Below, piece by piece: positions 7,425 through 27,413 of a stretch of 49,820 nucleotides of DNA (its first letter is position 1; every line of letters starts with the position of its first letter). The position numbers and the translations under genes are program-made. Under the pieces are notes generated by a model. It ran no database searches, was not told the origin of the DNA, and was given only the letters and a program-made list of their open reading frames with translations. Origin of the DNA: a virus. The stretch lies in the IMG/VR virus record IMGVR_UViG_3300014824_000003. One strand, given 5' to 3'.

Positions 7425-8279
7425 TTATACACCTAACAATCTATCAAGAAGATCGTCGTTTTCCTTTCTGGCGATTGCTGTTCGAATTGATTCGTCCGGG
7501 AACTGTACCGGAAGCGCCATTTTAACAATTCGATTTGTGATTCTGTCGTCAAAATTCAATTCTTCGATCTTGCAATTACTTGTAAAAATCGTGACGCGTT
7601 TTTCTATCATGCGGCCGTTCAGAATGTTGTAAAATCTTTCGTTGATCCAATCCTTCACGGCTTCAACGCCTATATCGTCGATCACAAGCACCGGCACCGA
7701 AACAATATCGTGAATCAACTTCTGTTCGGATTCTTCGTTCTTGCTGATTCCGCCCCAGGTTGCTTTTATCTGATCCAAAATCTGAATCGTTGTCGCAAAT
7801 TTCGCCTGAATGAATTTCTTTTCGATCAGGTCATTCGCGATAGAAACGGCCAGTCGTGTTTTTCCGGATCCCTTCACCCTGGAATAAAAATACAATCCCT
7901 TTCCGGTTTCCTGGATCTCGTCAAACTTTTCGACGTATCGTTTCGCGATTGTCTGGGCCATAGCCGCAAGTTCTCTATTCGCCGCCGTACTGTAACAATC
8001 CGTTTGAAAATTGTCTACCGTCTGTCCTTCGAATTCCTTTGGGATTGTCGCAAACTTCAAGCGACCGTTCAGCCGGTATCTTTGAAGGTATCCACACGAA
8101 CATTCGCGACAAAATTCGTGTCCGTCCGGCTCTTTCACCATTTCCCAGCCGGTATCGCGGCATTTTTCGCACCTATACGCCGGTGCGGTTTCTTCGGAAT
8201 CGTTCAAGTGCTTCGTTCGTAGTGCGATCAGATCCGGAAACATCTTCCTGATTGTGTCGCTGATCTGTTCTTCCGGCAT
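7425..8279 (-). CDS. DnaC/IstB-like AAA+ helicase loader with N-terminal zinc-finger-like CxxC pairs
   Basis: Walker A VKGSGKTRLA and Walker B VLVIDDIG. N-terminal CEKCRDTGW...CRECSCG. SD AAAGGGGGCG. Confidence 0.75.
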   Translation of the reverse strand: MPEEQISDTIRKMFPDLIALRTKHLNDSEETAPAYRCEKCRDTGWEMVKEPDGHEFCRECSCGYLQRYRLNGRLKFATIPKEFEGQTVDNFQTDCYSTAANRELAAMAQTIAKRYVEKFDEIQETGKGLYFYSRVKGSGKTRLAVSIANDLIEKKFIQAKFATTIQILDQIKATWGGISKNEESEQKLIHDIVSVPVLVIDDIGVEAVKDWINERFYNILNGRMIEKRVTIFTSNCKIEELNFDDRITNRIVKMALPVQFPDESIRTAIARKENDDLLDRLLGV

Positions 8280-9225: not shown

Positions 9226-10257
9226 TTATAAATATTTACTCATAATGTTTCTGCGCGAAAGCGGCTTCTTCTCTGTTGCCGGTTTCTTCTCCGGTTCCAG
9301 GTCGTCCAGGAAGTTCACGTCTTTTTTCATCGTACTTTCATGTGTTGCCGCCAGGTTCTTTTTTATCGCTTCTTTGTTCTCTGAAACCTTGTTATACACA
9401 ATATCAAGGCGTGTCTGTGGATAATTCAGTCCAGAAACACAACATATTGTGTTTCCGTCGTTGAAGGTCTGGAATGTGTCGATCGGCGTTCCTAAGTCTT
9501 TTTCGAGGTCTGCCATTCGTACATTGCCAGACAATGACGCCGTAATGTATTTAACAGCTCTATCTCCTTCGATCGGGGCGAAAGGTGTATTATGTATAGC
9601 CTTAATCACTTCGGCGCTTTCCTGGGCCTTCTGGCGTGTCACAACGGCCATTCCGTGGGCCTTTAATGTTTCGATGATCTCCGCCTTGTCAATATTGCCC
9701 TTTACGCTCTTGTGTTTTTCCGGAATATCCAGGAATGAACAAAAATCTTCGACGAAGCGCGAATTCAGTTCTAGCTTGTCTCCGTTGTTGTTATCCAGGA
9801 TAAAGCAAGAAGCAAGTCCCGGAATCTGTGTCAGTTCCGAAAAACATTCATAGGAATTCATGTGGCTTTTAACGCTTTCTTCCGGGTTCGGAATGATCGT
9901 CATGGCGCCGATTGTCTTTCCGTCGTCAATCAGAAGATCCGCAAGCATAGGGCCGGCGCCTGAACCGGTTCCGCCGCCGCTAGCGAAGATTACAAAAATC
10001 AATTCTGACTTGATCTTTGTTTCGATTTCTGCGGCGATCTGGTCGAAGTCGTCGATCACAAGCTGTTTCGCCTTTCTTCTGTCCTTGTTACAACCTTCTC
10101 CGTTCGGGATATGATACTTGAATTTCGCCTTTTCAAGCGTGTCAAGATCTTCCTGGCTTGTGTTGATGTAAAGCACGTTATAGCCCTTCTGTTCAAAAAG
10201 CTGTCCGATATTTCCGCCAGCCTGGCCGACGGCTACAAAAGCAATTTTATTTTTCAT
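9226..10257 (-). CDS. tubZ: Tubulin/FtsZ-superfamily GTPase, TubZ-like
   Basis: GQAGGNIG (T1 loop) and the tubulin signature ASGGGTGSGAGP. Overall layout resembles clostridial phage TubZ. Confidence 0.8.
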   Translation of the reverse strand: MKNKIAFVAVGQAGGNIGQLFEQKGYNVLYINTSQEDLDTLEKAKFKYHIPNGEGCNKDRRKAKQLVIDDFDQIAAEIETKIKSELIFVIFASGGGTGSGAGPMLADLLIDDGKTIGAMTIIPNPEESVKSHMNSYECFSELTQIPGLASCFILDNNNGDKLELNSRFVEDFCSFLDIPEKHKSVKGNIDKAEIIETLKAHGMAVVTRQKAQESAEVIKAIHNTPFAPIEGDRAVKYITASLSGNVRMADLEKDLGTPIDTFQTFNDGNTICCVSGLNYPQTRLDIVYNKVSENKEAIKKNLAATHESTMKKDVNFLDDLEPEKKPATEKKPLSRRNIMSKYL

Positions 10258-10627
10258 TGTCTGATTCTCCCTTCGTTGTATTATCGAACGTCTGTTGTTC
10301 GGTTTCTGCCGGAACGCTCCCGATATTCCGGGCGCCGGTCAAAATGATTTCCTGGCCGTTAATCTCATATAGCCACGTTCCGTATAGTCCGGAATGTAAA
10401 TCAATAACGCCCTGGTATGTGTCCCAGCATTTCGTTTCTTCGTTGTAGATCTGAACAGTCGCAAGCGATCCGTCCAGATCTGAATTCTTTTTCTGTTTTT
10501 CCGTTTCTTCGCGTGCCGTGTTGCTGTTGCCCAGAATGGCGGCCAGCGTTAAGAATATGGCCGCCAGCATTAAGAAGATAAGGCCGTGTAAAACAGAATT
10601 AGCAAAAAGTTTTTTATTTCGATTCAT
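10247..10627 (-). CDS. Membrane-anchored protein (126 aa) between tubR and tubZ
   Basis: N-terminal TM helix LHGLIFLMLAAIFLTLAAIL. Translationally coupled: overlaps tubR by 14 nt and tubZ by 11 nt. Confidence 0.6.
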   Translation of the reverse strand: MNRNKKLFANSVLHGLIFLMLAAIFLTLAAILGNSNTAREETEKQKKNSDLDGSLATVQIYNEETKCWDTYQGVIDLHSGLYGTWLYEINGQEIILTGARNIGSVPAETEQQTFDNTTKGESDNEK

Positions 10628-10874
10628 TCTTCGCCCTTTCCAGAAATTCGCACCCTTCCGGCGTTATGAAAAACGTGTCCGCCCGGCCTTCTTTCAAGCC
10701 GCGGCATATGTAGCCGGACTGTTCAAATTCCTTTATTTTCTTAAAAATTGTATTTTCCTTGTAACCACAATCTTCTTCTGTGTCGGTGATTTCCCGAACC
10801 GACATAGAACATAATTTGTTTGTTGCTCCGTTTGCTTTCAGAATCGAAAGCACCAGGAAGCCCAGTCTGTTCAT
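10614..10874 (-). CDS. tubR: Small winged-helix DNA-binding protein, TubR-like centromere binder
   Basis: 86 aa with a wHTH-like pattern. First gene of the tubZ operon, 17 nt downstream of the iteron array. Confidence 0.55.
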   Translation of the reverse strand: MNRLGFLVLSILKANGATNKLCSMSVREITDTEEDCGYKENTIFKKIKEFEQSGYICRGLKEGRADTFFITPEGCEFLERAKNESK

Positions 10875-10890: not shown

Positions 10891-10970
10891 CTAACTCTGA
10901 TAAACTCTGATTATCTCTGATTTACTCTGATAAACTCTGATTATCTCTGATTTACTCTGATAAACTCTGA
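10891..10970. repeat. tubC-like centromere: eight tandem 10-bp iterons NNNNCTCTGA (30-bp super-unit taaactctgattatctctgatttactctga)
   Basis: Read directly: ctaactctga taaactctga ttatctctga tttactctga, repeated. Confidence 0.85.
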
Positions 10971-11212
10971 TTTTTTGAAAGTAAATATTCAGGGATAGTC
11001 GGTTCGCCGCGTTCAGTTTTGATTTCTTCAAGGCTCTTTCCGTCCAGAAATGCCTTCTGATCCATCGAACCGCACGTCGGACATTCTGCTATACAGATAC
11101 ACGATAAAAAGACGTGTCCGCACTTGTTACATTTCATTTTCCAGAACGGATCCGTCACCCGTGTAATGCCGTCAGAATAATATCTTCTGGCGCTTGCGCC
11201 GATTCTTGACAT
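10952..11212 (-). CDS. Zinc-ribbon protein (86 aa)
   Basis: CNKCGH...CPTCGS. The last 6 codons are encoded by the iteron array. Confidence 0.55.
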   Translation of the reverse strand: MSRIGASARRYYSDGITRVTDPFWKMKCNKCGHVFLSCICIAECPTCGSMDQKAFLDGKSLEEIKTERGEPTIPEYLLSKNQSLSE

Positions 11213-11311
11213 TTTTACACTTTTCCTTTACAATAAATAAAGGCTGTGCTTTCACGGGTACGGTCAAAAGCGTAACGTCCGAGGGGCCAAACTTCCGCGT
11301 TGCGCTTTTTA

Positions 11312-11488
11312 TTATGCGGAATTAGCCGGAACGGTTATTGTGTCCGTCATAATTCCGATTGTCATAGCTTCCAGGGCGCCAGCAAGGGCGCCGTCAAGTT
11401 CTTCCTGGGAATTGATCCCGAAGTTTTTCAAAATGTCTTTCAGGCGTTCCGCCTGGCTCTTATTTCCAATATCAGAAGTCTTCTTCAT
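11312..11488 (-). CDS. Hypothetical protein (58 aa, MKKTSDIGNKSQAERLKDILKNFGINSQEELDGAL...)
   Basis: Hand translation. ATG 11488 is preceded by TAAGGCGGTG. Below the ORF-track cutoff. Confidence 0.5.
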   Translation of the reverse strand: MKKTSDIGNKSQAERLKDILKNFGINSQEELDGALAGALEAMTIGIMTDTITVPANSA

Positions 11489-11500
11489 AGAATCACCGCC

Positions 11501-12016
11501 TTAATAGTATTTATCCGGGGCCATAACGTGGAACCATTCGGCGCGTCCCTGGTATTTCCAGTCCACACGAAGATATTCCTTTTCCTGGGTGGAAACGGCG
11601 TCCACGTCGGCCATCGTCTTTCCTTCGTCCATGTACTTCTTGAACTTCTTCGTTCTTCCGTTTGCTTTTAAGATGATCCATTCGCGGCCGATCTCCCAGC
11701 GAATATTTCGCTGTTCGTCTTCGTCCCATTCCGGGGCGGAATAATAATCATATTCTTTCACGTAATGAACCGATTTTGGCCACATGGTTATTTTTGTATT
11801 CATTCCCAGGCTGTTCATGTGCGTGACACAATAGCTTTCGAACAGTTCTTTCTGTTCCTGGGTTAAATCTTCGTAGCCGTCCGTTTCGCGAATATCGAAT
11901 CCGTGAATGTTCAAAATGTCTTCGGCCGATCTCAAACGATAATCGGAACGACCGAATTTTTCATATAACGCGCAAACTTCTTTGTAACTGGTTCGATTTG
12001 TTGGTTTTCTTCTCAT
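11501..12016 (-). CDS. Hypothetical protein (171 aa)
   Basis: ORF track; SD GAAAGGTGG. Confidence 0.55.
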   Translation of the reverse strand: MRRKPTNRTSYKEVCALYEKFGRSDYRLRSAEDILNIHGFDIRETDGYEDLTQEQKELFESYCVTHMNSLGMNTKITMWPKSVHYVKEYDYYSAPEWDEDEQRNIRWEIGREWIILKANGRTKKFKKYMDEGKTMADVDAVSTQEKEYLRVDWKYQGRAEWFHVMAPDKYY

Positions 12017-12052
12017 AGTTCCACCTTTCTGGCCGTTTATCCGGCCTATTAG

Positions 12053-12068
12053 CCACGCTATCGCGTGG
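12053..12068 (-). other. Hairpin CCACGC-GATA-GCGTGG downstream of VR2 (DGR target-recognition-type stem-loop)
   Basis: 6-bp GC-rich stem with a 4-nt loop, 16 nt 3' of the target-2 stop. Same architecture as 26315-26334. Confidence 0.55.
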
Positions 12069-12083
12069 GTAAACAGATTACAG

Positions 12084-13055
12084 TTATCGGCGAACAGGTT
12101 CCCCTAAACAAGCGGAGAAAAAGCCGTGGTTCGTCCCGACGTTCGAACGTTCGTAGTACAAGTTCAACGCGGAAGGGCCAGCGCGCGAAGGGTTGCCGCA
12201 ACTGCCACCCACGATCGGGATTGCTTCTTCCAGATCGGCGTCTGCTGATAACCATTCCGAATTTTCCTTCATGTCGTCCGTGATGATTCCTAAGTCTTTC
12301 AGGATCTGCGGAACTTCGGTCAAATTGACGTATGTTTCCGATCTCATTCCACCGGCCCAGCCGTCAACCTTTTCTTTGTCGGTCGTGATAACAAGTTCGC
12401 CGTCTTCGTTTGCTCCTATCCTTACCGGATCCGGGAACGGAAGATCGTCAACGTGTACTTCCTGGAATTCTTCCGAAGAAATCGAAAGATCCGCGTCAGG
12501 TGCCGCCGCGTCGTTATCCGGCATATACTGGATCACGCCGCTTTTCAATCGAAGTCCGGCAATCATTTTCCAGACAAGCCCGACCACATCAGCGATTCCA
12601 GTTTCTTTATTTCCGTTGTGGAACCAATTCGCCGGGCCGGTGCCGGTCAGCGTTCTTCCACAATTCGGAATACCGATTCCGACTTCCGTTTCGTCATTGT
12701 GATACTTGCCGAAGCTTGTATTTCCGTGAATATCCGGAATTGTATGTTCGCGAATATACTTCCATTCCGCCCAGGTCAGCAAGTGCCAGCCGCGGCCCTT
12801 TCTCTTACATGCGGCGATTGCTTCGTCGAAGTTAATTCTTACGGCCGGATCAACCGCCGGCAACGAATACGCGCGTCCGTTTCTGATACAATTAACGAAC
12901 TGGCTTAAATAAATGGAATCATATTCCACACCGCGGACGAAAAACATTCGATCCGCTTCTTCCGGTGTCTTCGCCGTGTTCTCAACTTTCAGCATGATTG
13001 AAGGAATTCCCATGTCGTCATACTTTAAAACAATAGATTCTTTCGTGTTACTCAT
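12084..13055 (-). CDS. DGR target protein 2 (FGE/C-type-lectin-fold variable protein, paralog of 26364-27413)
   Basis: The C-terminal 36 codons are VR2. GRAYSLPAVDP...GWHLLTWAEWKYI...GPANWFH aligns with target 1. Confidence 0.85.
   Translation of the reverse strand: MSNTKESIVLKYDDMGIPSIMLKVENTAKTPEEADRMFFVRGVEYDSIYLSQFVNCIRNGRAYSLPAVDPAVRINFDEAIAACKRKGRGWHLLTWAEWKYIREHTIPDIHGNTSFGKYHNDETEVGIGIPNCGRTLTGTGPANWFHNGNKETGIADVVGLVWKMIAGLRLKSGVIQYMPDNDAAAPDADLSISSEEFQEVHVDDLPFPDPVRIGANEDGELVITTDKEKVDGWAGGMRSETYVNLTEVPQILKDLGIITDDMKENSEWLSADADLEEAIPIVGGSCGNPSRAGPSALNLYYERSNVGTNHGFFSACLGEPVRR
12110..12218 (-). repeat. DGR variable region VR2
   Basis: 109 bp align to TR 25721-25829 with 9 mismatches. 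All 9 fall at TR plus-strand T, which is coding-strand A. Confidence 0.9.
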
Positions 13056-13294
13056 TCGCTTATTTCCTCACTTTCCTTTTTGTCGAACATTCCCAGGCGT
13101 GCGCCCAACTCAACGCACCCCAAAACAATTTGTGTCAGGTCTTTTCCAGATACACCAGCAAATTCAAAACTTAACGTCGATTCGCCGTTCGGTTCGTCTT
13201 TGATATGACAGAAGAAACCTTTTTCGACGGTTTTACTTGTTCCGTCGGTGTAATTGAAAACAAAATTCTTGATTTCCTTTTCCTGATTGCTCAT
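13052..13294 (-). CDS. Hypothetical protein (80 aa)
   Basis: ORF track; SD AAAGGAGCG. Confidence 0.5.
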   Translation of the reverse strand: MSNQEKEIKNFVFNYTDGTSKTVEKGFFCHIKDEPNGESTLSFEFAGVSGKDLTQIVLGCVELGARLGMFDKKESEEISE

Positions 13295-13298
13295 GTTT

Positions 13299-13586
13299 TC
13301 ACGCTCCTTTTGCTGGAAGTTCCAGTTCTGAAACGTGGAACAAATGTCCTAACGCTCCGATTTTTCCATAAACAACTTCATTGTCGATCGGAACTTTGAA
13401 GTCTTGTGATCCGGTTCTAATCGCATACATCATTGCGGCCGGGTTTCCGTTGCTGTTCATCCAGGACGTGCCGCCGTTTACATTTTCCCAATAGTCTTCG
13501 ATTGTGAAATCGGCACCGCCGAACTTCTGAATGTCTTTTCTAATCTTCACTGTTTGTCCGGCAAATCTGAATTTTTCTCTTTTCAT
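13299..13586 (-). CDS. Hypothetical protein (95 aa from ATG 13586)
   Basis: SD GAAAGGAAATAAGCGA precedes ATG 13586. The track ORF extends to 13637. Confidence 0.5.
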   Translation of the reverse strand: MKREKFRFAGQTVKIRKDIQKFGGADFTIEDYWENVNGGTSWMNSNGNPAAMMYAIRTGSQDFKVPIDNEVVYGKIGALGHLFHVSELELPAKGA

Positions 13587-13689
13587 TCGCTTATTTCCTT
13601 TCTTCGCTATTAAATTGTAAGTGCTTATTTCCAACATCAGCCGCCGATTGCAGTCGGTTGTTCCGGCTATATGTCGAAGTGCTGGCGGC

Positions 13690-15850: not shown

Positions 15851-17857
15851 ATGGCATACGCCAAAGCGAAAAAACACCTGAAAATCTGGACGAAGAAAAA
15901 GGCGGCGTTATACGTCCGCGTTTCCACCAGATACCAGGTCGATAAAGACAGTCTTCCGTTCCAACGGAAGAAATTAAAAGAATATTGTAAATTTCTAGGG
16001 CTTGAAGATTATGTAATTTTTGAAGACGACGGATATTCAGCAAAGAACACGGAACGTCCGCACTTTCAAGAAATGATGTCACGCGTCAGATCCGGCGAAT
16101 TTTCACACCTGATCGTGTGGAAGGTGGATCGTGTTTCCCGAAATCTTCTGGACTTCGCGGCAATGTACCAGGAATTAAAAGATCACAAGGTCACGTTTAT
16201 TTCGATGAACGAACAGTTCGACACTTCAACCGCGATCGGTGAAGCTATGCTTAAAATCATTCTGATTTTTGCGGAACTTGAAAGAAACATGACGTCCGAA
16301 CGTGTAACCGGAATCATGCTGGATCGTGCCGAACAAGGATTGTGGAACGGCGCACGTATGCCGGTTGGTTATCGTTGGAACAACGAAACAAAGTTCCCTG
16401 AACCGGATCCGGAAGAAGTGAAGATCGTTCAACTTATCTTTGACAAATACGAAGAATGGAAATCAAGCATAAAAATAGCGCGATACCTGAATAACAACAA
16501 TTTCAAGTCAAAGCGCGGCGGCCAGTGGACTTCGAAGCTTATCCACGATATTATTCGGAATCCGTTCTATATCGGAACATACCGCTATAATCTGCGTGAA
16601 TCCGGGCGCGGCCCATTGAAGCCGGAAAGTGAATGGATCGTCCGTGAAAACAATCACCCGGCGATCATTGACAAGGCGCAATTTGACCGGTGCAATAAGA
16701 TCATGGATCAGAACGGATCCAGCCGCGACACGTCCGATCTACGCGCCAGGAAGTACGTTCACACATTTTCCGGACACCTGGTTTGTGGCAAGTGCGGCGC
16801 TAATATGATCGCGTCGAAGGATCGCGCCAGAGCGAACGGCTGGCGGCCGTCAATGTATCGTTGCGCCCAGCGTTCCCGAATGTTGGATTGCGACAATTCC
16901 AGGACGATAAATGAATCTTATATCGGGCCTTTTATATTTAATTATATCGCGAACCTTGCCAGGGTTCAGAAGAATTTTAAGAATATAACCACGGTTGAAA
17001 AGCTGGAAAGGGAACTTCTGAAAGGTGAAACGTTCGACGGTGTGGCCGGAATACTTCCGGAAGGCTTAAATTTGACCTTCCAGGCACTTTCTTTTCGTCA
17101 GGTAGGGAATGGAACCTATATTCCGGATGTTGACTTCCTGGGCGATTCTGACGGCGCCAGTGACCGCGATCAGATCGAATTGTTGAAGTCAGAAATCGAG
17201 AAGTCAAAAAATGCTGTCACCAGATTAACGGACGTTTATCTGTTCGATCCGGATTCCATGACGAAGGAAGAATTCGCCACAAAGAAAAAGGAACTGTCAA
17301 AGAAAATTGAAGGCATGGAACGCCAGCTTGCGGATCTTCTGGACGATTCCGGGAACGATGATCTGGCCGACATGTCATTTATCAAGAAGGCTTCCGCGTT
17401 CCTGGTGGCTCAAAGGATCGTTTCAAAATCCTTCGTCGATTATGTCGGCATGGCCCAGGAATTAGACAACGAAATCCTGAAAGACTTTATCGACCAGATC
17501 GTCGATCAGATCGTCGTCCTGGACGGCCGTGTCCAGTCAATCACGTTCATAAACGGATTAAAGCACGAATTCCGGTACGCAACGCCGGCGGAATTGCCAG
17601 TGTGTCAGAAATGCGGCGGACGTATCGGTTCAACGTGCGGCTGTCGGACAAGGACGTTCGATTTCTCCGGTAAGCGTTACCAGCGAATAAAAGTCGGTGA
17701 TCCGCGCGACACGCTTCACGGGAAGAAGAATCCGGTTTGTCCGGAATGTTTCGCCCATGAAGGGCGCTGGCACCATTGGAATTGCAAGATTGAAACGTGT
17801 CCGATCTGTGGCGGACGCCTGGCGGAATGTGAACACGGGCCGAATGGTAAGAAATAG
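15851..17857 (+). CDS. Large serine recombinase (integrase) with an extra C-terminal Cys/His-rich module
   Basis: Resolvase domain ALYVRVSTRYQ...DGYSAKNTERP...VWKVDRVSRN, recombinase domain, zinc ribbon CGKCG...C, coiled coil, then about 90 aa with 4 CxxC pairs. Confidence 0.85.
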   Translation: MAYAKAKKHLKIWTKKKAALYVRVSTRYQVDKDSLPFQRKKLKEYCKFLGLEDYVIFEDDGYSAKNTERPHFQEMMSRVRSGEFSHLIVWKVDRVSRNLLDFAAMYQELKDHKVTFISMNEQFDTSTAIGEAMLKIILIFAELERNMTSERVTGIMLDRAEQGLWNGARMPVGYRWNNETKFPEPDPEEVKIVQLIFDKYEEWKSSIKIARYLNNNNFKSKRGGQWTSKLIHDIIRNPFYIGTYRYNLRESGRGPLKPESEWIVRENNHPAIIDKAQFDRCNKIMDQNGSSRDTSDLRARKYVHTFSGHLVCGKCGANMIASKDRARANGWRPSMYRCAQRSRMLDCDNSRTINESYIGPFIFNYIANLARVQKNFKNITTVEKLERELLKGETFDGVAGILPEGLNLTFQALSFRQVGNGTYIPDVDFLGDSDGASDRDQIELLKSEIEKSKNAVTRLTDVYLFDPDSMTKEEFATKKKELSKKIEGMERQLADLLDDSGNDDLADMSFIKKASAFLVAQRIVSKSFVDYVGMAQELDNEILKDFIDQIVDQIVVLDGRVQSITFINGLKHEFRYATPAELPVCQKCGGRIGSTCGCRTRTFDFSGKRYQRIKVGDPRDTLHGKKNPVCPECFAHEGRWHHWNCKIETCPICGGRLAECEHGPNGKK

Positions 17858-18140: not shown

Positions 18141-18169
18141 AAAAAGCCGCCATTTCTGGCGACTTTTTT
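18141..18169. terminator. Bidirectional terminator hairpin GCCGCC-ATTTCT-GGCGAC flanked by A6 and T6
   Basis: Read directly; ends the 20337-18168 minus-strand operon. Confidence 0.6.
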
Positions 18170-18719
18170 ATTTGAAATATCCGCGTTCGACCTTTGATTT
18201 CAGGAATTCGTTTATTTGCGGCGTTTTGTAACCGGAAGAAATACGTTCTTCGCAATATGCCATAATGTCAAGGGCGGTTTTTTTATAAGTCGATCGGATC
18301 TGTTCTTCTGTTGCGTATTCGTCCCGAATGTATCTTGTCATAAAAAGCACAATGTCTGTATGGCAACAAGGACAAGTTGAGTATGGCTTGACCTTTGTTA
18401 TATCGTCGTGGCCGAACGGGCCGATCTCGTATTTTGATACATCTATCGACATTTTCCCGGTTCTGTTTGTGTAAATGACGGAAACTTTCCAGCCGAAAAC
18501 GATTTCTTCATCGTCCGAAGTTTCGAATTCTTCAACAACGCAATTATGTATTTCTGCGTATAATTCCGCCTTTCTTTTATCTCGGAATACGCCCAAAATC
18601 GAAGCGTCGTAAGGATCGCCTGGAACAACAATATAAACCTTTATAGTTTCATAATTCGATGGATTTTTATAAACACCTGGAATATATTTGTTTTCTTTAT
18701 TTACCATATCTTCGGCCAC
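18168..18719 (-). CDS. Hypothetical protein (183 aa)
   Basis: ORF track. Confidence 0.55.
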   Translation of the reverse strand: MAEDMVNKENKYIPGVYKNPSNYETIKVYIVVPGDPYDASILGVFRDKRKAELYAEIHNCVVEEFETSDDEEIVFGWKVSVIYTNRTGKMSIDVSKYEIGPFGHDDITKVKPYSTCPCCHTDIVLFMTRYIRDEYATEEQIRSTYKKTALDIMAYCEERISSGYKTPQINEFLKSKVERGYFK

Positions 18720-18970
18720 ACTTCCCCGGCAATCGGAACGCCTTCGGTGTGCCTTTCGATGTAAGCTTCACGATTGCGCGCTTCTATGTTTCCAGCGGAA
18801 GTATAGTTGAAATCAGCGTCGAATTCAGTTCCGCAAGCGATACATTCCCAGGAAGCCGTTGTGTCTGGCCCTTGATAGAATCCGGCCGATCGAAGGGCCG
18901 CGCCTTTTCTTTTCAAGATCACCATTCCGCCGCATAGTGGACATTTCTTTTTGTCATATAATGCCGACAT
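18701..18970 (-). CDS. Zinc-ribbon protein (89 aa)
   Basis: CPLCGG...CIACG. Confidence 0.55.
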   Translation of the reverse strand: MSALYDKKKCPLCGGMVILKRKGAALRSAGFYQGPDTTASWECIACGTEFDADFNYTSAGNIEARNREAYIERHTEGVPIAGEVWPKIW

Positions 18971-19245
18971 TATTCTTCACCTTCTTCGTAGTAATAGCGA
19001 TCGTGAATTTGCGAAATGGTTATGTCGCTATTTTGTGGAACAGTCACGGTCAAATCACAATCCGTCATAAAATCTTCATTAGTGCAAGTAATAAATCCAC
19101 ATTCCATAGATCCAGCGTCTTCCTTTCGCTTCCTTCGCTCTGTCAGATCACCGTTTCTTTTTATTCCGTATATGTTCGTGTATTGACATAACATATTATA
19201 TTCCAACTTTCCGCCACATATCGGACATTTATTAAGAATCTTCAT
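18970..19245 (-). CDS. Zinc-ribbon protein (91 aa)
   Basis: CPICGG...C...C. SD AAAGGGAAAGTGA. Confidence 0.55.
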   Translation of the reverse strand: MKILNKCPICGGKLEYNMLCQYTNIYGIKRNGDLTERRKRKEDAGSMECGFITCTNEDFMTDCDLTVTVPQNSDITISQIHDRYYYEEGEE

Positions 19246-19537
19246 TCACTTTCCCTTTCTTCAAAAGTTTTTTATATCTTCTGGAAGTTTTCAGAATTTC
19301 ACATTCAAGTTCCGGATCCCACCATCTATTATCCGGGCGGAACTCACATTCATTACACGGCCATTCGTTGGATCCGTTTTTCAATCCAGGGCAACCGCGA
19401 CATTCGATTATCATTCCACTTGAATTTATTTCTGGTTGAATAAGGAAGTTAATAATAACCGCTACGATAAATATAATAAATATGGCAATCGGGGCGCCAA
19501 TGATAACGCCGGCAATAATCAAAATCGTTTTTATCAT
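19232..19537 (-). CDS. Membrane-anchored Cys-rich protein (101 aa)
   Basis: TM helix ILIIAGVIIGAPIAIFIIFIVAVIINFLI followed by CRGCPG...CNEC. SD TAAGGCGGTGG. Confidence 0.55.
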   Translation of the reverse strand: MIKTILIIAGVIIGAPIAIFIIFIVAVIINFLIQPEINSSGMIIECRGCPGLKNGSNEWPCNECEFRPDNRWWDPELECEILKTSRRYKKLLKKGKVNEDS

Positions 19538-19549
19538 AGTTCCACCGCC

Positions 19550-19831
19550 TTAATGCCTGGATATTTCCCAGGGTTCGGAAGTATATCGATTTATGAAGTC
19601 GTTTACATTCTTCGCGTATTCTTCCAGTATCTCTTTTGATTCTTCGATTGCTCCAGGAAGTGATTCGGCTTTAAGCTTTTGGCCGTCAATTTGAAGCTGG
19701 GCGCACGATAGGAACCAGCCGTCCAGGTGAATAATTCTGTGGATCGTGACCGTGATTCCGTTCGTCGTTGTGTAGAATATTGTTCCGGTTTCAACCGGCT
19801 TTCTATAGCTTGAATTACTGATAAATTTCAT
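19550..19831 (-). CDS. Hypothetical protein (93 aa)
   Basis: ORF track; SD GGAAAGGAAAA. Confidence 0.5.
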   Translation of the reverse strand: MKFISNSSYRKPVETGTIFYTTTNGITVTIHRIIHLDGWFLSCAQLQIDGQKLKAESLPGAIEESKEILEEYAKNVNDFINRYTSEPWEISRH

Positions 19832-19870
19832 GTTTTCCTTTCCGGGAAAAGCCTTGAATTTACAAGAAGA

Positions 19871-20095
19871 TTACAACGTCTTTTTTACTCGCACGATAGG
19901 ACACCCGAAAGTTTGAGTAAAAAAGGTCATGGGACGTCCCAGTTCTTCGGATTTTTTCTTTACCCAGGAACGGGCTTTCGCCATAAAATAGAACTGTCTG
20001 TTCGGCTCAAATTCCGGTGCTGGCTTGCTTATGTCTACGGTGTCAAGATCTAAGTCTTTCAGATTGTCTATATATCGTAAATCTATTAAATTCAT
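19871..20095 (-). CDS. Hypothetical protein (74 aa)
   Basis: ORF track; SD GAAAGGGAAA. Confidence 0.5.
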   Translation of the reverse strand: MNLIDLRYIDNLKDLDLDTVDISKPAPEFEPNRQFYFMAKARSWVKKKSEELGRPMTFFTQTFGCPIVRVKKTL

Positions 20096-20118
20096 GTTAT
20101 TTCCCTTTCGATTTGATT

Positions 20119-20337
20119 TTAGAATTCTTCGCCGGATTCCTTATCCACGAAAATGATCTTAAATTCGCAATTAAGGAATTCCGCGATCTGTGACAATTCC
20201 GATTCCTTGAAATCGTCACGTTTTAATTTGTTCGAAAAGTTCTGGCGCGTCTGCCCCGTCCCTTCTGCGACTTCTCCCATTGTTACGCCGCGACGTCCAA
20301 CAATCAGGCGGATCTTTTCGGCTGTTGTCATTCCCAC
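20119..20337 (-). CDS. Small HTH regulator (Cro/Aca-like), divergent from cassette B
   Basis: 72 aa with HTH-like VTMGEVAEGTGQTRQNFSNKLKR. Its own promoter overlaps a TACACT half-palindrome. Confidence 0.55.
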   Translation of the reverse strand: MGMTTAEKIRLIVGRRGVTMGEVAEGTGQTRQNFSNKLKRDDFKESELSQIAEFLNCEFKIIFVDKESGEEF

Positions 20338-20369: not shown

Positions 20370-20398
20370 ATTTTACATTTTACACTTTATAATGTCAA
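20370..20398 (-). promoter_or_regulatory. Promoter of the HTH operon (TTGACA-17-TAAAAT) overlapping a degenerate operator
   Basis: Minus strand has TTGACA at 20398-20393 and TAAAAT at 20375-20370. The site TACACTttatAATGTC lies at 20381-20396. Confidence 0.55.
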
Positions 20399-20445
20399 GT
20401 TGAAATAAATATTTTATTTTTTAATTGTTTTCTTTACATTATATA

Positions 20446-20495
20446 TTGACATATTACACTATAAAGTGTATAATGTAATCAGAAGTTAAGGAAAG
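20446..20495 (+). promoter_or_regulatory. Promoter-operator-leader cassette, copy B
   Basis: TTGACA(20446)-17-TATAAT(20469), palindrome TACACTataaAGTGTA at 20455-20470. 50/50 identical to copy C. Confidence 0.7.
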
Positions 20496-20508
20496 TGAGG
20501 AATTAAAA

Positions 20509-20958
20509 ATGTTAGATAAGAACGGAAAAGAAATGGTAACTGGTTGTGTGGTAGAAATCAAAAACGCATACTTCAAAACAGATAACGGACTTTACTTCAT
20601 TGAAAAGTCGCCGGAAGAACTCGGCTGGCTCGGAAGTGATTATTGTCTTCTTAAATTAAAAAGAAACGGTCAGTTAAGCACCGCAAAGAAAAATATTTGT
20701 TTCTGGCCGATTATGTCATTCGTAAGTGATCGAATGAAATCCATTGAAGCCAACGCCTGGAATAAAGAACATGCGACAATCGAAGTCAGAACAGACATTG
20801 ATCGCCAGTATATCAAGGAATACTTCAAGGAAGAAGCCGAACGTCTGGATCCGATGATCGAACACATGAAATATAATTTCGGTGAAGATCACCCGGAAAC
20901 AATTAAACAGATAAAGCTTCGCGATCATCGAATGGAAGTCAGCGATTCAATCCAGTAA
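20509..20958 (+). CDS. Hypothetical protein (149 aa)
   Basis: ORF track; SD AAGTGAGGAAT. Confidence 0.6.
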   Translation: MLDKNGKEMVTGCVVEIKNAYFKTDNGLYFIEKSPEELGWLGSDYCLLKLKRNGQLSTAKKNICFWPIMSFVSDRMKSIEANAWNKEHATIEVRTDIDRQYIKEYFKEEAERLDPMIEHMKYNFGEDHPETIKQIKLRDHRMEVSDSIQ

Positions 20959-20963
20959 ATGAA

Positions 20964-20987
20964 GGGCGGCCAGTGCGCCGCCTTTTA
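20964..20987 (+). terminator. Terminator GGCGGC-cagtgc-GCCGCC followed by TTTT
   Basis: Read directly. Confidence 0.6.
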
Positions 20988-21053
20988 TACACTTTATAAT
21001 GTAATATAGAAATAATATTTTTACATTTTTATTATTTTCCTTTACATTTTTAC

Positions 21054-21103
21054 TTGACATATTACACTATAAAGTGTATAATGTAATCAGAAGTTAAGGA
21101 AAG
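21054..21103 (+). promoter_or_regulatory. Promoter-operator-leader cassette, copy C
   Basis: TTGACA(21054)-17-TATAAT(21077), palindrome at 21063-21078. An upstream half-site TACACTttatAATGTA lies at 20988-21003. Confidence 0.7.
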
Positions 21104-21116
21104 GCGGTAAATAAAA

Positions 21117-21341
21117 ATGACGAAATTTGAAATCGGAAAAACTTATTCAATGCGTAGTATCTGCGATCATGATTGTGTGTGGACTTACACCGTAACAGCC
21201 AGAACGGCGAAGACAATCACCATTTCGGACGGTGAAAAGGTTCAGAAGTGCCGGATCATCAAGGCGGCTTCTGAATACAGAAACGCCGAAACCGTATATC
21301 CACTGGGCCAGTATTCAATGGCCCCGGCATTAACAGCATAA
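21117..21341 (+). CDS. Hypothetical protein (74 aa)
   Basis: ORF track; SD AAGGAAAGGCGG. Confidence 0.6.
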   Translation: MTKFEIGKTYSMRSICDHDCVWTYTVTARTAKTITISDGEKVQKCRIIKAASEYRNAETVYPLGQYSMAPALTA

Positions 21342-21389
21342 TATTTTTTAAGCCGGCGGCCTGGCGCCGCTGGTGGAAAGGTTAAGTAT

Positions 21390-21794
21390 ATGAGAAGAAA
21401 ATATAATAGAGAACAAAAAGAGTATATCGAAACGAAGAAAGCCCTGGAAGCGTTGGAAGCCAGGGAAAAGGAAATGGAAGCCGCTTTCGTGAAAAGCCTG
21501 GGTGTTGTAAACGAAGACGGAACGGTTCCTTCTCGCACATGGGCGATTGATGATGATTCGATCGCGGATCAGGCAATCGACGACTTCGGCGCACTCGTTG
21601 AAGACTGCGGACTGTGGGCGGAATTATGCAAGGCGAAGGAAGAATTTCAGGCGGCGGAAGAAAAACTTGTGAATTACGCGATTTCGCTTGTGCCTTGTAG
21701 GCGTGAACGTGAAATCTTAACAACTTCGGCTTCTAACTTGAAATACCGGATCAAGATCATAGAAACGGTTATGAAGTTCGATTCAACACTTTAA
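21390..21794 (+). CDS. Hypothetical acidic protein (134 aa)
   Basis: ORF track. Confidence 0.55.
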   Translation: MRRKYNREQKEYIETKKALEALEAREKEMEAAFVKSLGVVNEDGTVPSRTWAIDDDSIADQAIDDFGALVEDCGLWAELCKAKEEFQAAEEKLVNYAISLVPCRREREILTTSASNLKYRIKIIETVMKFDSTL

Positions 21795-21831
21795 CATTTG
21801 CGGCGGCTCCGGCCGCCAGGAAGGAAAGACA

Positions 21832-22062
21832 ATGGAAGAATGGAAAGAAGCTCTTGAAGCGGCTGTGAATAAAACAATAGGCGCCTGGAATAAGGCAAGT
21901 GAAGCCTTCTTATCTCACAATCAGAAAGGTTTTGAACACTGGCACAACGAATTTAATAGATATGTGGAAACTTTTTCACATGCGATCGGAATTCCGGAAG
22001 AAGATTTTATTTCTTACTTGGAAGAAAAAGGACTGTATAGAACAGAAAAGAAAGGTGAATGA
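21832..22062 (+). CDS. Hypothetical protein (76 aa)
   Basis: ORF track; SD AGGAAGGAAAG. Confidence 0.55.
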   Translation: MEEWKEALEAAVNKTIGAWNKASEAFLSHNQKGFEHWHNEFNRYVETFSHAIGIPEEDFISYLEEKGLYRTEKKGE

Positions 22063-22316
22063 ATATGTATAAGAATTATTTCGATGAATTAAAGGTTAGG
22101 CTTTTTGAATCTTGTGATTGGTGCAATAAACAAGCGAACGACGGAGATCGGAACCGAAATCATGTGAACTATGGTTCTGCTTCTGCTATCGCCCGGATCA
22201 TGACGGATTTCGGCCACAACGTACACATTCCAGTCTGGGACGACAACGGATTCCTTCGGATTCCGAAAATTGTAATTGACGGCGAAGTGTTTATTGATTT
22301 TGAAAAATCAGAGTAA
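22059..22316 (+). CDS. Hypothetical protein (85 aa); the last codons run into iteron array 2
   Basis: ORF track; ATGA-type overlap with the upstream gene. Confidence 0.55.
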   Translation: MNMYKNYFDELKVRLFESCDWCNKQANDGDRNRNHVNYGSASAIARIMTDFGHNVHIPVWDDNGFLRIPKIVIDGEVFIDFEKSE

Positions 22317-22367
22317 ATCAGAGATAATCAGAGTTTATCAGAACAAATCAGAATATATCAGAAATAA
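22308..22367. repeat. Second centromere-like iteron array, inverted relative to 10891-10970
   Basis: tcagagtaaa tcagagataa tcagagttta is the exact reverse complement of the 30-bp super-unit of array 1. Three degenerate TCAGAA units follow. Confidence 0.85.
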
Positions 22368-22373
22368 AAAGAA

Positions 22374-22414
22374 CCCACACAAGCCCCGTAAATCGGTTTT
22401 ACTGCTTGCGTGGG
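22374..22414. terminator. Long hairpin CCCACACAAGC...GCTTGCGTGGG; the T run is better on the minus strand
   Basis: 11-bp stem with one mismatch and a 19-nt loop. The minus strand continues TTCTTTTTATTTC. Confidence 0.5.
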
Positions 22415-22606
22415 TATTTCTTCGTCAAAAATCATTTAGGGCGAAATCCGGGCAAATCCGGAAGCCTGGCGGCCATTTTACGACCGATTATCCAGGTGGA
22501 TTTTCAGAAGAATTTTGTTCCCCCCTTAAACCCCCTTCCCTCTGCGCCATTGTATCACATATTTTCTAAACTGTAAAGTGTATTTTGTAAATTATATCAC
22601 TTACAA

Positions 22607-23797
22607 TTAACACATTTTGTTTACAAGCGCCTGAATGGTTGCGTAATTGTAACCGGCGGCTTCAAGCTTTGCCTTTCTCTGTGGGTTATTTCCCCATTTT
22701 CCGGCCAGAACTTCCTTCGCGATTTCCTCGTTGGATTTCTTCGCCGGTGCGGCTTTCTGATTAACGATCGCCTGGATCGCGTTGTAATCGTAGCCAGCGG
22801 CGGAAAGTCTGTTCTTTCTGTCATCACCATTTCCCCAGGCTCCAGCCAGAACTTCCTTCGCGATTTCCTCGTTGGATTTCTTCGCCGGTGTGGCTTTCTG
22901 ATTAACAATCGCCTGGATCGCGTTGTAATCGTAGCCAGCGGCGGAAAGTCTGTTCTTTCTGTCATCACCATTTCCCCAGGCTCCAGCCAGAACCTCGTTC
23001 GCGATTTCCTCGTTAGATTTCTTCGCTGGTGCCGGTGTGGCTTTCTGATTAACAATCGCCTGGATCGCGTTGTAATCATAACCGGCGGCGGAAAGTCTAT
23101 TCTTTCTGTCGTCGCCATTTCCCCATTTTCCGGCCAGAACTTCCTTCGCGATTTCCTCGTTGGACTTCTTCGGCTGTGCCGGTGCTGGCTTTGATCCGCC
23201 CAGTTCTGCCGGAAAATCTCTGTAACAAATATTCATGTCAAGTCCGGAAGATCCGATTCCGTCACATGATCCCTTGCTGGTGTACTGCCAAATATCGAAG
23301 TTTGAAACGTTCGGCTTGTTTCCAGGCTGTCCGTTGTTTACTCCGTACTTTGCAACCCATTTTGTGTATGAATCAACGCCCACCAGGTAGTTATTCCACC
23401 AGTTTTCGTTAGCATACACGCCAGGCATGTAACCAGCGGCCTTCACGGCTTCACAAAAGACTTTTACAACGTCCTTCGCAATTCCGGACTGGCTGGCTTC
23501 CTCAACGTCGATATAAAGCGGATAACTAAGCTTGTAGCCTTTCACCAGACGAAGCGCGTGATCTGCTTCTGATTTTGCCATATCTGTATTTTTTGCGTAA
23601 GAATACAGATAAACGCCGAACGGAATCCCTAGTCTGGAACACTCGTCGGCGTTTCTCTTGAACATTTTGTCGTCCTGGCTTTCAATGTCGGAACCATAGC
23701 CGCAACGCATAAGCACGCCGCCGATTCCAGACGCCTTTACCTTGTCCCAGTCAATAACGCCATTATGAACTGATACGTCAATCATTTTTACTTCCAT
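22607..23797 (-). CDS. Endolysin: GH25 muramidase plus four CW_7 cell-wall-binding repeats (Cpl-7-like)
   Basis: N-terminus IDVSVHNGVIDWDKVK...DIWQYTS resembles GH25. Four copies of KKSNEEIAKEVLAGxWGNGDDRKNRLSAAGYDYNAIQAIVNQKA. ATG 23797 follows SD AGTGAGGAA. Confidence 0.85.
   Translation of the reverse strand: MEVKMIDVSVHNGVIDWDKVKASGIGGVLMRCGYGSDIESQDDKMFKRNADECSRLGIPFGVYLYSYAKNTDMAKSEADHALRLVKGYKLSYPLYIDVEEASQSGIAKDVVKVFCEAVKAAGYMPGVYANENWWNNYLVGVDSYTKWVAKYGVNNGQPGNKPNVSNFDIWQYTSKGSCDGIGSSGLDMNICYRDFPAELGGSKPAPAQPKKSNEEIAKEVLAGKWGNGDDRKNRLSAAGYDYNAIQAIVNQKATPAPAKKSNEEIANEVLAGAWGNGDDRKNRLSAAGYDYNAIQAIVNQKATPAKKSNEEIAKEVLAGAWGNGDDRKNRLSAAGYDYNAIQAIVNQKAAPAKKSNEEIAKEVLAGKWGNNPQRKAKLEAAGYNYATIQALVNKMC
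22610..23170. repeat. Four tandem 141-147 bp repeats encoding the CW_7 modules (three are near-identical)
   Basis: The protein repeats R1-R3 differ at only a few residues. Confidence 0.85.
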
Positions 23798-23801
23798 GAT
23801 A

Positions 23802-24032
23802 TTATTCCTCACTTTCTACTTCCGGAATACCGGCAACACTTGTTAAAATGCTTACAACGCCAGAAACTACGGCGGAAGATACGACGATCTTCCAGTCTAC
23901 GGCGGCTACAACGGTGCTTGTGCCGATCACCGCAACGGCTGTCTGTGCCATTGTTTTAACGGCGCGAATAGCCGCTTTCTTTGCCCATTCCTTTGTGTTT
24001 ACTGACGCTTTCAAAACTGAATTCTTAAACAT
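23802..24032 (-). CDS. Holin (LL-H/phi LC3-like)
   Basis: 76 aa with two hydrophobic helices and a charged C-terminus PEVESEE. Directly upstream of the endolysin. Confidence 0.7.
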   Translation of the reverse strand: MFKNSVLKASVNTKEWAKKAAIRAVKTMAQTAVAVIGTSTVVAAVDWKIVVSSAVVSGVVSILTSVAGIPEVESEE

Positions 24033-25720: not shown

Positions 25721-25835
25721 AAGCGGAGAAAAAGCCGTGGTTCGTCCTGACGTTCGAACGTTCGTTGTTCAAGTTCAACGCGGAAGGGCCAGCGTTCGAA
25801 GTGTTGTTGTAACTGCCACCCACGATCGGCAAGCG
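25721..25835 (-). repeat. DGR template repeat (TR)
   Basis: 115 bp homologous to VR1 and 109 bp to VR2. By my count it has 25 coding-sense adenines and 8 AAC codons in the VR frame. The track ORF 25623-25832 is not a gene. Confidence 0.9.
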
Positions 25836-26363: not shown

Positions 26364-27413
26364 TCACAATTCCATATAAGCGGAGAAAAAGCCGCGGTTC
26401 GTCCCGACGTACGAACGTTCGTTGTTCAAGAGCAACGCGGAAGGGCCAGCGAGCGAAGTGTCGTAGTAACTGCCACCCACGAACGGCAAGCGCTCACCTT
26501 CGTTGTTGATCCAGAATCCGCCGGTGTGAGTTACGCCCGTAACCGGTGCAAGGAATAATTCCTTTAAGATCTCCGGAATAGTTGTGACGCCCGTTCCGGC
26601 CGCAATATTTCCGAAGTTTGGTGAATAAGTTGATCCAGCGGCGACAGTATCTGTTGCAATTTTGAAATCCTTTGTATATTTCAAAGTTCCGGCTGTTCCA
26701 GGTTCAACAAGTGATCCGTCCGGCTTGATAGCCTTCCAGAATGTGGACGCGTCGGCGTGTGATACCTGTTTCGCGGCAAGGTTGCCGGCGAAGATCTGAA
26801 TTTCGCCGTTCTTAACACGCATACCAGAACACCACTTCCAGCAATTTCCAACCCAGTCCGCGATTCCCTGGCGTGTTCCGTCGTGGAACCATGTCGCCGG
26901 GCCTGATCCGGTCGCTGTTCTGGTTGTTCTTGTGCCGCCGGAACCGTCGCTTTCTGTTGCGGTTGTTTCGCCGGTTTCGTATGTATAGGTGTGATTCTTG
27001 CCATACTGTGTATTTCCACGCGGAACAAATCCGGATTTATAGATCAAGTGGTTAATGACCGCGCGTTCCGGAATACTCATCAGGTGGAATCCAGTTCCCT
27101 TCGCATTACAAGCCTTGACAGAATCGTCAAAGTTGATTGAAGCGCGCGGATCTACGCCAGGCCATGAATAAGCACGTCCGTTTACGATTGTGTTTAAGAA
27201 ATTCGAAATGAAGAATCGCTTGTATAACACGCCGTCAACATTGAACGCTTCGGCGACTTTTGAACTTCCGCCGGCAAAAAGCTGGGCGTTTGTGATCTGG
27301 TTAATAGGCTTCATAAAGGACGGAAGGTTCGCGTTATCCATGATAACAGTAGAACCGTAGCCAGTAAGGCCTTCCGTCGCGAATTTTAAGCTGTCAAACT
27401 GATAACTATTCAT
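26364..27413 (-). CDS. DGR target protein 1 (FGE/C-type-lectin-fold receptor-binding candidate)
   Basis: Last gene of the tail module. GRAYSWPGVDP...GFHLMSIPE...GPATWFH. The C-terminal 38 codons are VR1. Confidence 0.85.
   Translation of the reverse strand: MNSYQFDSLKFATEGLTGYGSTVIMDNANLPSFMKPINQITNAQLFAGGSSKVAEAFNVDGVLYKRFFISNFLNTIVNGRAYSWPGVDPRASINFDDSVKACNAKGTGFHLMSIPERAVINHLIYKSGFVPRGNTQYGKNHTYTYETGETTATESDGSGGTRTTRTATGSGPATWFHDGTRQGIADWVGNCWKWCSGMRVKNGEIQIFAGNLAAKQVSHADASTFWKAIKPDGSLVEPGTAGTLKYTKDFKIATDTVAAGSTYSPNFGNIAAGTGVTTIPEILKELFLAPVTGVTHTGGFWINNEGERLPFVGGSYYDTSLAGPSALLLNNERSYVGTNRGFFSAYMEL
26378..26492 (-). repeat. DGR variable region VR1
   Basis: 115 bp align to the TR with 10 mismatches, all at TR plus-strand T (coding-strand A). 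Confidence 0.9.

Follow-up and report, generated by a model that had tools for sequence, protein, structure and literature searches.

The viral genome IMGVR_UViG_3300014824_000003 of IMG/VR was analysed as a single stretch of 49,820 nucleotides, which we call the window. Relatives join position 1 to position 49820, and the window is therefore a circularly permuted complete genome. Two short arrays of phased 10-bp repeats lie in it in inverted orientation, 11.4 kb apart one way around the circle and 38.4 kb the other. Array 1 is found directly upstream of a gene for a TubR-like protein, the canonical place for tubC, the centromere of a type III (TubZRC) partition system. Array 2, with which this account is mainly concerned, has no adjacent tub gene. 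The two arrays and the open reading frames (ORFs) around array 1 are as follows.

22304..22363, plus strand: array 2, six phased units, a proposed auxiliary TubR-binding site
10895..10974, minus strand: array 1, eight 10-bp units, the canonical tubC-like centromere
10952..11212, minus strand: ORF of 86 amino acids, Zn-ribbon-like, with its last codons and stop (TAA) in array 1
10614..10874, minus strand: tubR-like gene for an 86-amino-acid winged-helix protein (PDB 6TEY), the presumed binder of both arrays
10247..10627, minus strand: ORF of 126 amino acids with an N-terminal hydrophobic stretch, between tubR and tubZ
9226..10257, minus strand: tubZ, a tubulin/FtsZ-like GTPase of the phage c-st type (Pfam, PDB)
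8173-9210, minus strand: Phage_rep_org_N replisome organiser (Pfam), directly after tubZ and 1.7 kb from array 1

Array 2 consists of six units in phase on the plus strand, of the type TAAATCAGAG; in order they read AAAATCAGAG TAAATCAGAG ATAATCAGAG TTTATCAGAA CAAATCAGAA TATATCAGAA, that is, three perfect units followed by three of the form ATCAGAA. The eight units of array 1, on the minus strand, are of the type [T/A][A/T][A/T]ATCAGAG and end 20 bp before the tubR start codon. The 30-mer TCAGAGTAAATCAGAGATAATCAGAGTTTA has exactly three copies in the window, at 10901-10930 and 10931-10960 on the minus strand and at 22308-22337 on the plus strand, where shuffled sequences gave an expectation of 0. 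The longest exact match between the arrays is 36 bp in inverted orientation, and the two arrays, of 60–80 bp, flank the segment between them as inverted repeats. Tandem Repeats Finder detects a 10-bp period at 10892-10972 and at 22305-22368. A position weight matrix (PWM) derived from 243 array-1 units in 32 distinct arrays of other phages scores all six units of array 2 (22304, 22314 ... 22354) at 9.0–16.5 bits in exact 10-bp phase. Over the rest of the 49.8-kb window it gives isolated single matches with no phased cluster, so that there is no third array; of the 18 copies of ATCAGAG (4.3 expected), 11 fall inside the two arrays.

An earlier reading of the window from its letters alone (the sequence-only reading) had described a second, inverted tubC-like copy, with 22308-22337 as the exact reverse complement of a 30-bp super-unit and three degenerate units behind the perfect ones. 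All of this holds on the evidence of the 30-mer, the repeat period and the PWM, as does the expectation that only two arrays exist, which the counts of the 30-mer and of ATCAGAG and the PWM scan of the whole window agree in supporting. The similar A-run (ctctgattttt / aaaaatcagag), which had been taken as the outer flank, lies on the segment-proximal side at both arrays. A larger duplicated segment was considered and rejected; homology between the arrays ends at their edges and the flanks share none. A promoter scan found a weak TTGAAA-17-GATAAT match overlapping array 2 with no equivalent at array 1, which leaves a promoter role for the arrays without basis.

The neighbours of array 1 are those of a c-st-type system, in line with the tubC-like and TubR-like context that had been proposed. 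The 86-amino-acid TubR-like protein, a transcriptional regulator by PHROG, matches PDB 6TEY ('DNA-binding protein TubR') over its full length with E=1.4e-6. The TubZ protein matches Pfam Tubulin (1.4e-15) and TubZ_C_3 (4.7e-18) and the c-st TubZ structures 4XCQ/3V3T (E=1e-37). On the minus strand the order is Zn-ribbon ORF, array 1, tubR-like gene, 126-amino-acid ORF, tubZ, Phage_rep_org_N organiser and a DnaC-like loader. The succession of Zn-ribbon ORF, array, TubR and TubZ recurs in more than 40 relatives, and the Zn-ribbon-like ORF upstream of array 1 is conserved across the family; the 126-amino-acid ORF is confined to the lineage of the window and a few relatives (35–45% identity), with tubR followed directly by tubZ in most others. 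The genome thus has a TubZ GTPase and a winged-helix TubR encoded upstream of tubZ in one operon. Array 1 also forms the expected single iteron locus just upstream of tubR; array 2, which is remote, inverted and without a neighbouring tub gene, does not.

The repeat motif follows TubR. Array 1 always lies 20–30 bp before tubR in the more than 40 relatives, and in an alignment of TubR proteins all phages with ATCAGAG arrays share the sequence K-x-N-T-x-[FY]-K, the putative recognition helix. Where outgroups differ in this helix, their 10-bp iterons upstream of tubR differ too, KKVTLHRR pairing with [AG]TGAAA[CT] units and KSPTIYKR with TTTGTAAAAG-type units. The Phage_rep_org_N organiser is present by Pfam even in the distant relatives L369 and L028, and the ATCAGAG units persist alongside an organiser N-domain only 27% identical to that of the window (L028, L372, L374 and L375) and where the protein after tubZ has no Phage_rep_org_N match in Pfam (L353, L360 and L371). 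Because the motif outlasts the divergence of the organiser and changes with the helix of TubR, the comparison favours TubR, and not the replication initiator, as the cognate binder.

Array 2 is conserved well beyond the close relatives of the window, as the sequence-only reading had thought worth establishing. In close strains (at least 93% identity) it always has six units, in two haplotypes over more than 25 strains, whilst the unit number of array 1 varies there between 5, 8, 10 and 11, mostly in steps of 30 bp, even among near-identical strains. Array 2 is kept in 12 of 16 species-level prophages (GTDB genomes) and in several IMG/VR contigs; the carriers include Anaerocolumna xylanovorans, Blautia glucerasea, B. 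schinkii and Lachnospiraceae COE1. In these diverged genomes it has 4–6 phased units of at least 8 bits each; the last accessory gene lies on one side of it and, 10–25 bp away in all 12, a terminator hairpin on the other, next to the lysis cassette. The flanks of array 2 there are unalignable or non-homologous, and the neighbouring proteins are 41–63% identical, up to 82% in one metagenome-assembled genome. Both arrays are found on one contig in L037 and eight further relatives. A dispersed centromere implies at least two remote copies of a site on one replicon, and exactly two are present here. Outside the family, none of about 60 phages with a diversity-generating retroelement (DGR) has such arrays. 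Neither array region has a close relative among GenBank phages by blastn, the matches being short ones to endolysin or replication genes. A degenerate three-unit pattern was uninformative beyond the phage family: in viral contigs it met many unrelated arrays, for example the ATCAGAAGCG family, and in genome contigs the matches listed were mostly unrelated repeats.

The surroundings of array 2, and the features that concern integration, are the following.

22059..22316, plus strand: ORF of 85 amino acids with its last codons and stop (TAA) in array 2
22373..22415, both strands, stronger on the minus strand: terminator hairpin adjoining array 2
22607..23812, minus strand: GH25/CW_7 endolysin, the last gene of a co-directional block of ~38 kb (tubR ... 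lysis)
19871..20095, minus strand: ORF in the attP region, with phage–host junctions at ~19900
15851..17857, plus strand: large serine recombinase (integrase) of 668 amino acids (Pfam Resolvase, Recombinase, Zn_ribbon_recom)

Array 2 sits in a non-coding gap where transcription of the accessory operon (plus strand) and of the lysis and late genes (minus strand) converges. On the minus strand the hairpin makes a good intrinsic terminator (−25.7 kcal/mol, z=−4.7), with its U-tract reaching into array 2 at the outer end; as a plus-strand terminator it is weaker. The genes past it, on the minus strand throughout, encode the GH25/CW_7 endolysin, a holin, XhlA and the reverse transcriptase of the DGR. 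The observation that an ORF reads into each array stands in so far as both ORFs stop with TAA in the first units; however, ORF 22059-22316 is strain-variable. It corresponds to a 260-bp presence/absence polymorphism (22043-22302), is missing from many near-identical strains and is dispensable, and in strains without it ORF 21832-22062 runs into array 2 instead.

A few further elements were noted around array 2. The accessory plus-strand genes that end there are driven from a promoter cassette of ~135 bp, duplicated at ~84% identity (20378-20511 and 20985-21119), each copy with a perfect TTGACA-17-TATAAT (20446-20474 and 21054-21082). Between the endolysin stop and the hairpin, the minus strand of 22416-22606 has a conserved promoter, TTTACA-17-TG-n-TACAAT (22577-22549), followed by a conserved G-rich element (GGCGCAGAGGGAAGGGGGTTTAAGGGGGGAACAAAA) and then by ~130 nt to the terminator 22373-22415. 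This unit could produce a small RNA of ~170 nt; many diverged relatives carry it, those of the Blautia schinkii type being without it. Rfam gave no match for the unit, nor any over 22150-22700, and covariation support for a structure is weak. Within the endolysin gene, tandem repeats of 141 bp (22688-23172) encode CW_7; their number varies between strains, giving products of 253 to 401 amino acids, and assemblies often break there. Each repeat has one isolated high-scoring TubR-type unit (TTAATCAGAA; 22755, 22896 and 23043), probably by coincidence since the unit encodes VNQK.

The phage is normally integrated. Homology to the window starts at ~19900 in six prophage contigs with at least four different host neighbourhoods, and the junction adjoins a host miaB-like radical-SAM gene of 491–494 amino acids (UPF0004/Radical_SAM/TRAM), for which ORF 19871-20095, on the minus strand, appears to be a phage-borne replacement 5' end. 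In contigs of 0.05–0.9 Mb the element is integrated beside or in this gene, unlike a low-copy replicon that is stably inherited outside the chromosome; contigs of ~50 kb in a circular, unintegrated arrangement are also found (L128). In the assembly collection, more than 5,600 blocks contain the exact Zn-ribbon protein of ORF 10952-11212 and likewise more than 5,600 (~5,900) the exact TubR protein, many of them on contigs of 0.2–0.9 Mb. The hosts are Lachnospiraceae (Blautia, Anaerocolumna, Hungatella), the closest being 'Clostridium sp. UMGS1169' and 'Firmicutes bacterium CAG:194'. Both arrays are also present in lysogens available in culture, among them Anaerocolumna xylanovorans DSM 12503, Blautia glucerasea MSK.18.94 and Lachnospiraceae bacterium COE1.

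The prophage junctions place attP inside what had been called an 11.4-kb module, 2.4 kb from array 2, and the arrays of the prophage therefore delimit the block of ~38–40 kb from tubR to the endolysin and not a lysogeny module. In integrated relatives the arrays are inverted and lie 39–40 kb apart through the lytic genes, a spacing worked out for three (A. xylanovorans, COE1 and B. glucerasea). The bracketing of an 11.4-kb lysogeny module is thus true of the circular form but not of the prophage. The segment, described as holding every plus-strand gene, has minus-strand genes as well (10952-13637 and 18168-20337), besides attP at ~19900.

There are signs that the two arrays of a genome exchange sequence. 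Rare unit variants recur in the two arrays of a single genome; A. xylanovorans has TTCGTCAGAG in this way, strain X68 has TTTATCCGAA and the window has ATAATCAGAG. Unit sharing is 0.40 within the own genome against 0.27 with other genomes (permutation p=0.0004, an optimistic value as related genomes were taken as independent). This sharing points to gene conversion, co-adaptation, or both. One contig has a junction of the kind that a reciprocal crossover would give: in IMGVR_UViG_3300045988_008683 (L001/L032/L145; 31.7 kb) the endolysin side is joined through a hybrid array of seven units to window positions 10916-13285. The junction is exactly that predicted for an inversion with the crossover in the 36-bp shared stretch, and joins the side of the Zn-ribbon ORF to that of the terminator. 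The contig ends ~3.6 kb past the junction, in the variable immunity region, and the reciprocal junction is outside its reach. It may be an assembly chimera at the inverted repeat.

All else is parental. In close strains the array-2 junction is parental in ~26 contigs and the array-1 junction in ~20, against the one recombinant. The array-1 junction is parental in ~25 diverged genomes, and in all 12 diverged genomes with array 2 this array stays beside the accessory genes. A pattern specific for the recombinant junction had no match in JGI metagenome contigs, and the reciprocal junction gave no match with either flank type; a generic junction pattern retrieved 12 metagenome and 2 genome contigs, all parental, as are the longest contigs with the exact flanking proteins, although assemblies report consensus states and would not reveal a minority orientation. 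Pfam found no invertase in or next to the segment, its sole recombinase being the 668-amino-acid serine integrase, whose attP at ~19900 is away from the arrays. We conclude that reciprocal exchange between the arrays is at most rare.

We consider it reasonably probable, judging from the sequence comparisons, that array 2 is an auxiliary docking or loading site for TubR, a second copy of the tubC-type iteron array. Of the roles put forward by the sequence-only reading, a split centromere or bridging by TubR remains the most plausible kind. TubR, whose gene precedes tubZ and the replication genes in the early operon that reads leftward, would be made after induction or infection. Its polymers would form along the phased 10-bp units both of array 2 and of array 1, the canonical site beside the tubR gene. 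On the excised or replicating genome there would then be two TubR–DNA complexes, inverted with respect to each other and separated by 11.4 kb and 38.4 kb on the circle, and TubZ filaments may capture both, or the complexes may pair with each other. The outcome would be a 'dispersed' type III centromere that positions phage DNA, and not an inversion switch. Exchange between the arrays would take place by gene conversion, a reciprocal crossover that inverts the segment being a rare accident at most. Because a normally integrated prophage has no obvious need for plasmid-style partition, positioning of DNA in the lytic cycle is more plausible than plasmid-style maintenance, and the TubZRC system here probably positions or organises phage DNA at that stage, much as the actin-like AlpAC/alpS system does in prophage CGP3 (PMC4446434). 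The constancy of array 2 at six units in close strains, where array 1 has 5, 8, 10 or 11, supports a role of its own for the second array.

Several points weigh against this interpretation. Array 2 is missing in L391, L394 and L398 (one sublineage, together with the viral contig L157) and in L397 and the viral contig L152, and the genomes and contigs without it keep TubR, TubZ and array 1. The sequence-only reading had regarded relatives without the second array as contrary evidence, and these go part of the way, the second array being absent from one or more sublineages that have TubRZ and array 1. Kept where its flanks are unalignable, yet absent from some relatives, array 2 looks like a selectively maintained copy that is nevertheless dispensable. 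The usual integrated state of the phage makes a classical plasmid-partition role unlikely, and what such a phage would gain from a second handle is speculative. Every type III system described has tubC as a single locus upstream of tubR (PMC6009700, PMC5016525), and there is no precedent in these systems for a remote site being needed or used. The binding of TubR to array 2 is something that we infer, on good grounds, from sequence alone, and the p-value for concerted evolution of the arrays is optimistic because the kinship of the genomes was ignored.

Other explanations of the two arrays were weighed against the same evidence. They may act as a pair that delimits the block from tubR to the endolysin, the two inverted, TubR-coated arrays serving as loop anchors or boundary elements or as a two-handled centromere for TubZ filaments, and so organise the excised or replicating DNA spatially and insulate the lytic block from transcription on its flanks; a plasmid-type TubZRC system would then have been repurposed in a prophage family common in human-gut Lachnospiraceae, with gene conversion the usual exchange and inversion an occasional one; we give this an outside but real chance. 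A purely transcriptional role, with TubR at the arrays as an insulator or roadblock that gates transcription at both borders of the lytic block, seems on the sequence rather unlikely. Here array 2 would reinforce the bidirectional terminator and stop antisense read-through from the strongly promoted accessory operon (20509-22316) into the lysis genes, and from the late operon into the accessory genes, whilst at array 1 TubR would hold back early transcripts reading on into tubR, tubZ and the replication genes, and so regulate itself. Such a role would suit the start of both arrays at the stop codon of an incoming ORF in the same orientation relative to transcription, the hairpin abutting array 2 in 12 of 12 diverged genomes, the consensus promoters at 20446 and 21054 that drive transcription toward array 2, and the ~20 bp between array 1 and the tubR start codon, too short for a separate promoter; moreover, TubR–tubC complexes are known repressors of tubRZ (PMC6009700, PMC5016525). 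However, a strong intrinsic terminator is already in place, lineages without array 2 have the same gene layout, and the overlap of ORFs and arrays may reflect just the compaction of the genome and TAA triplets in the spacers. We think it improbable that array 2 is a decaying relic, left without function by an old duplication or illegitimate recombination of part of tubC and occasionally converted from array 1. Three of its six units do have the weaker ATCAGAA form, it has been lost in some sublineages without visible rearrangement, and gene conversion between the arrays is indicated. Yet ATCAGAA units are normal in array 1 of relatives too, array 2 is constant at six units in the more than 25 close strains against a fluctuating array 1, and a neutral non-coding stretch of 60 bp should not persist, phased and high-scoring with 4–6 units, where its flanks no longer align.

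It is very improbable that the arrays are origin repeats, that is, two distant binding regions for the Phage_rep_org_N protein of 8173-9210 after the manner of SPP1. The gene for that protein comes straight after tubZ in the window, as it does in many relatives including the distant L369 and L028, and SPP1 gives a precedent for one replisome organiser with two distant sites. Origin repeats of the SPP1 type would be expected within or beside the organiser gene and would track its DNA-binding domain, whereas array 1 is attached to tubR, with the organiser gene 1.7 kb away behind tubR and tubZ. That ATCAGAG units persist beside an N-domain of just 27% identity and beside proteins unmatched by Phage_rep_org_N, and that the outgroup motif changes with the TubR helix, likewise argues against the organiser. 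Programmed or frequent inversion, in which the arrays would flip the 11.4-kb arc (equivalently the 38.4-kb one) and put the replication and late genes behind the promoters of the accessory operon in place of the early promoter, we find barely credible. In its favour are the predicted junction in contig 008683, with the crossover in the 36-bp stretch, and the indications of sequence exchange between the arrays. That contig, which could be a chimera, is alone against the parental contigs of close strains and the parental order at both arrays in diverged genomes, with no recombinant junction in JGI metagenome contigs, no match for the reciprocal junction and no invertase, the attP of the integrase being elsewhere. 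An inversion would separate the replication and late genes from the early promoter under immunity control and place them under the accessory-operon promoters, which would probably be deleterious. It was rejected as the main explanation, and the proposal of the sequence-only reading that the arrays are substrates for inversion finds no support.

Of the known systems, the TubZRC(Y) system of c-st is nearest in its proteins and in having short direct iterons immediately upstream of tubR. The tubC of c-st is bipartite: TubR forms one ring on a block of high affinity and another on a block of low affinity (PMC6009700). Both blocks lie within ~350–500 bp upstream of tubR, with TTGAC and A/TGAA iterons, whereas in the window the second block is 11.4 kb/38.4 kb away, inverted and without a neighbouring tub gene, and the units (TAAATCAGAG) keep a strict 10-bp phase. 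An auxiliary TubR site at array 2 would stretch the bipartite principle from hundreds of base pairs to kilobases of spacing. In addition, c-st is a plasmid prophage whilst the phage here integrates through a serine integrase, and no homologue of TubY, a feature of c-st, was seen after tubZ. In pBtoxis and pBsph, tubC has direct repeats in two to three blocks bound by a winged-helix TubR, which also serve autoregulation (PMC5016525). These are plasmid replicons with a single locus upstream of the operon, and no remote inverted copy has been described for them. Their tubC repeats are 12 bp long.

The closest functional analogy to the two arrays would be the dispersed sites of N15 and of chromosomal parS. 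N15, which is never integrated, has several sites for its centromere-binding protein scattered over the replicon, some of them among the phage lytic genes; the dispersed sites reportedly go back to work by Ravin and Lane in 1999 and by Grigoriev and Lobocka in 2001. These systems, like the window, have several remote sites for one centromere protein on one replicon. They are of type I, with palindromic sites bound by a ParB/SopB-type protein and a ParA/SopA-type ATPase, whereas here TubR and TubZ occur with directional iteron arrays. SPP1 has an organiser, G38P, that binds two distant repeat regions, oriL and oriR. The likeness lies in the Phage_rep_org_N protein encoded 1.7 kb from array 1; the difference is that the repeats here follow TubR and that array 1 is neither inside nor adjoining the organiser gene. 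The integrated prophage CGP3 of Corynebacterium glutamicum also combines a plasmid-type cytoskeletal filament with a DNA adaptor. In its AlpAC/alpS system the adaptor binds repeats upstream of its own operon, and the genes, expressed early after induction, support the replication or positioning of phage DNA (PMC4446434). It differs in having the actin-like AlpC and a single concentrated repeat region, with no second remote array reported.

Some centromere-type sites are 'scattered across the genome' (PMC5016525). For type III systems tubC is described as two or three blocks that together make up one locus upstream of the operon, and a remote, inverted and conserved second array of the tubC type is undescribed in the literature covered (PMC5016525, PMC6009700). 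The conserved array 2 departs from this textbook layout of one centromere locus directly upstream of tubR, and the element that carries it is itself unusual, an integrative phage that is very common in gut metagenomes. If TubR binds both arrays, the genome would have a natural dispersed or bipartite type III centromere and would provide a route to asking what cytoskeletal systems do in temperate phages.

A further observation concerns the DGR of the window. It has one template repeat (TR), beside Avd and the reverse transcriptase, and two variable repeats (VR1 and VR2), the coordinates being 25721-25829, 26378-26486 and 12110-12218. VR2 forms the 3' end of ORF 12084-13055, in the early leftward operon near array 1, and VR1 that of ORF 26364-27413; the differences between TR and VR1 fall at plus-strand T, that is, at A of the coding strand.

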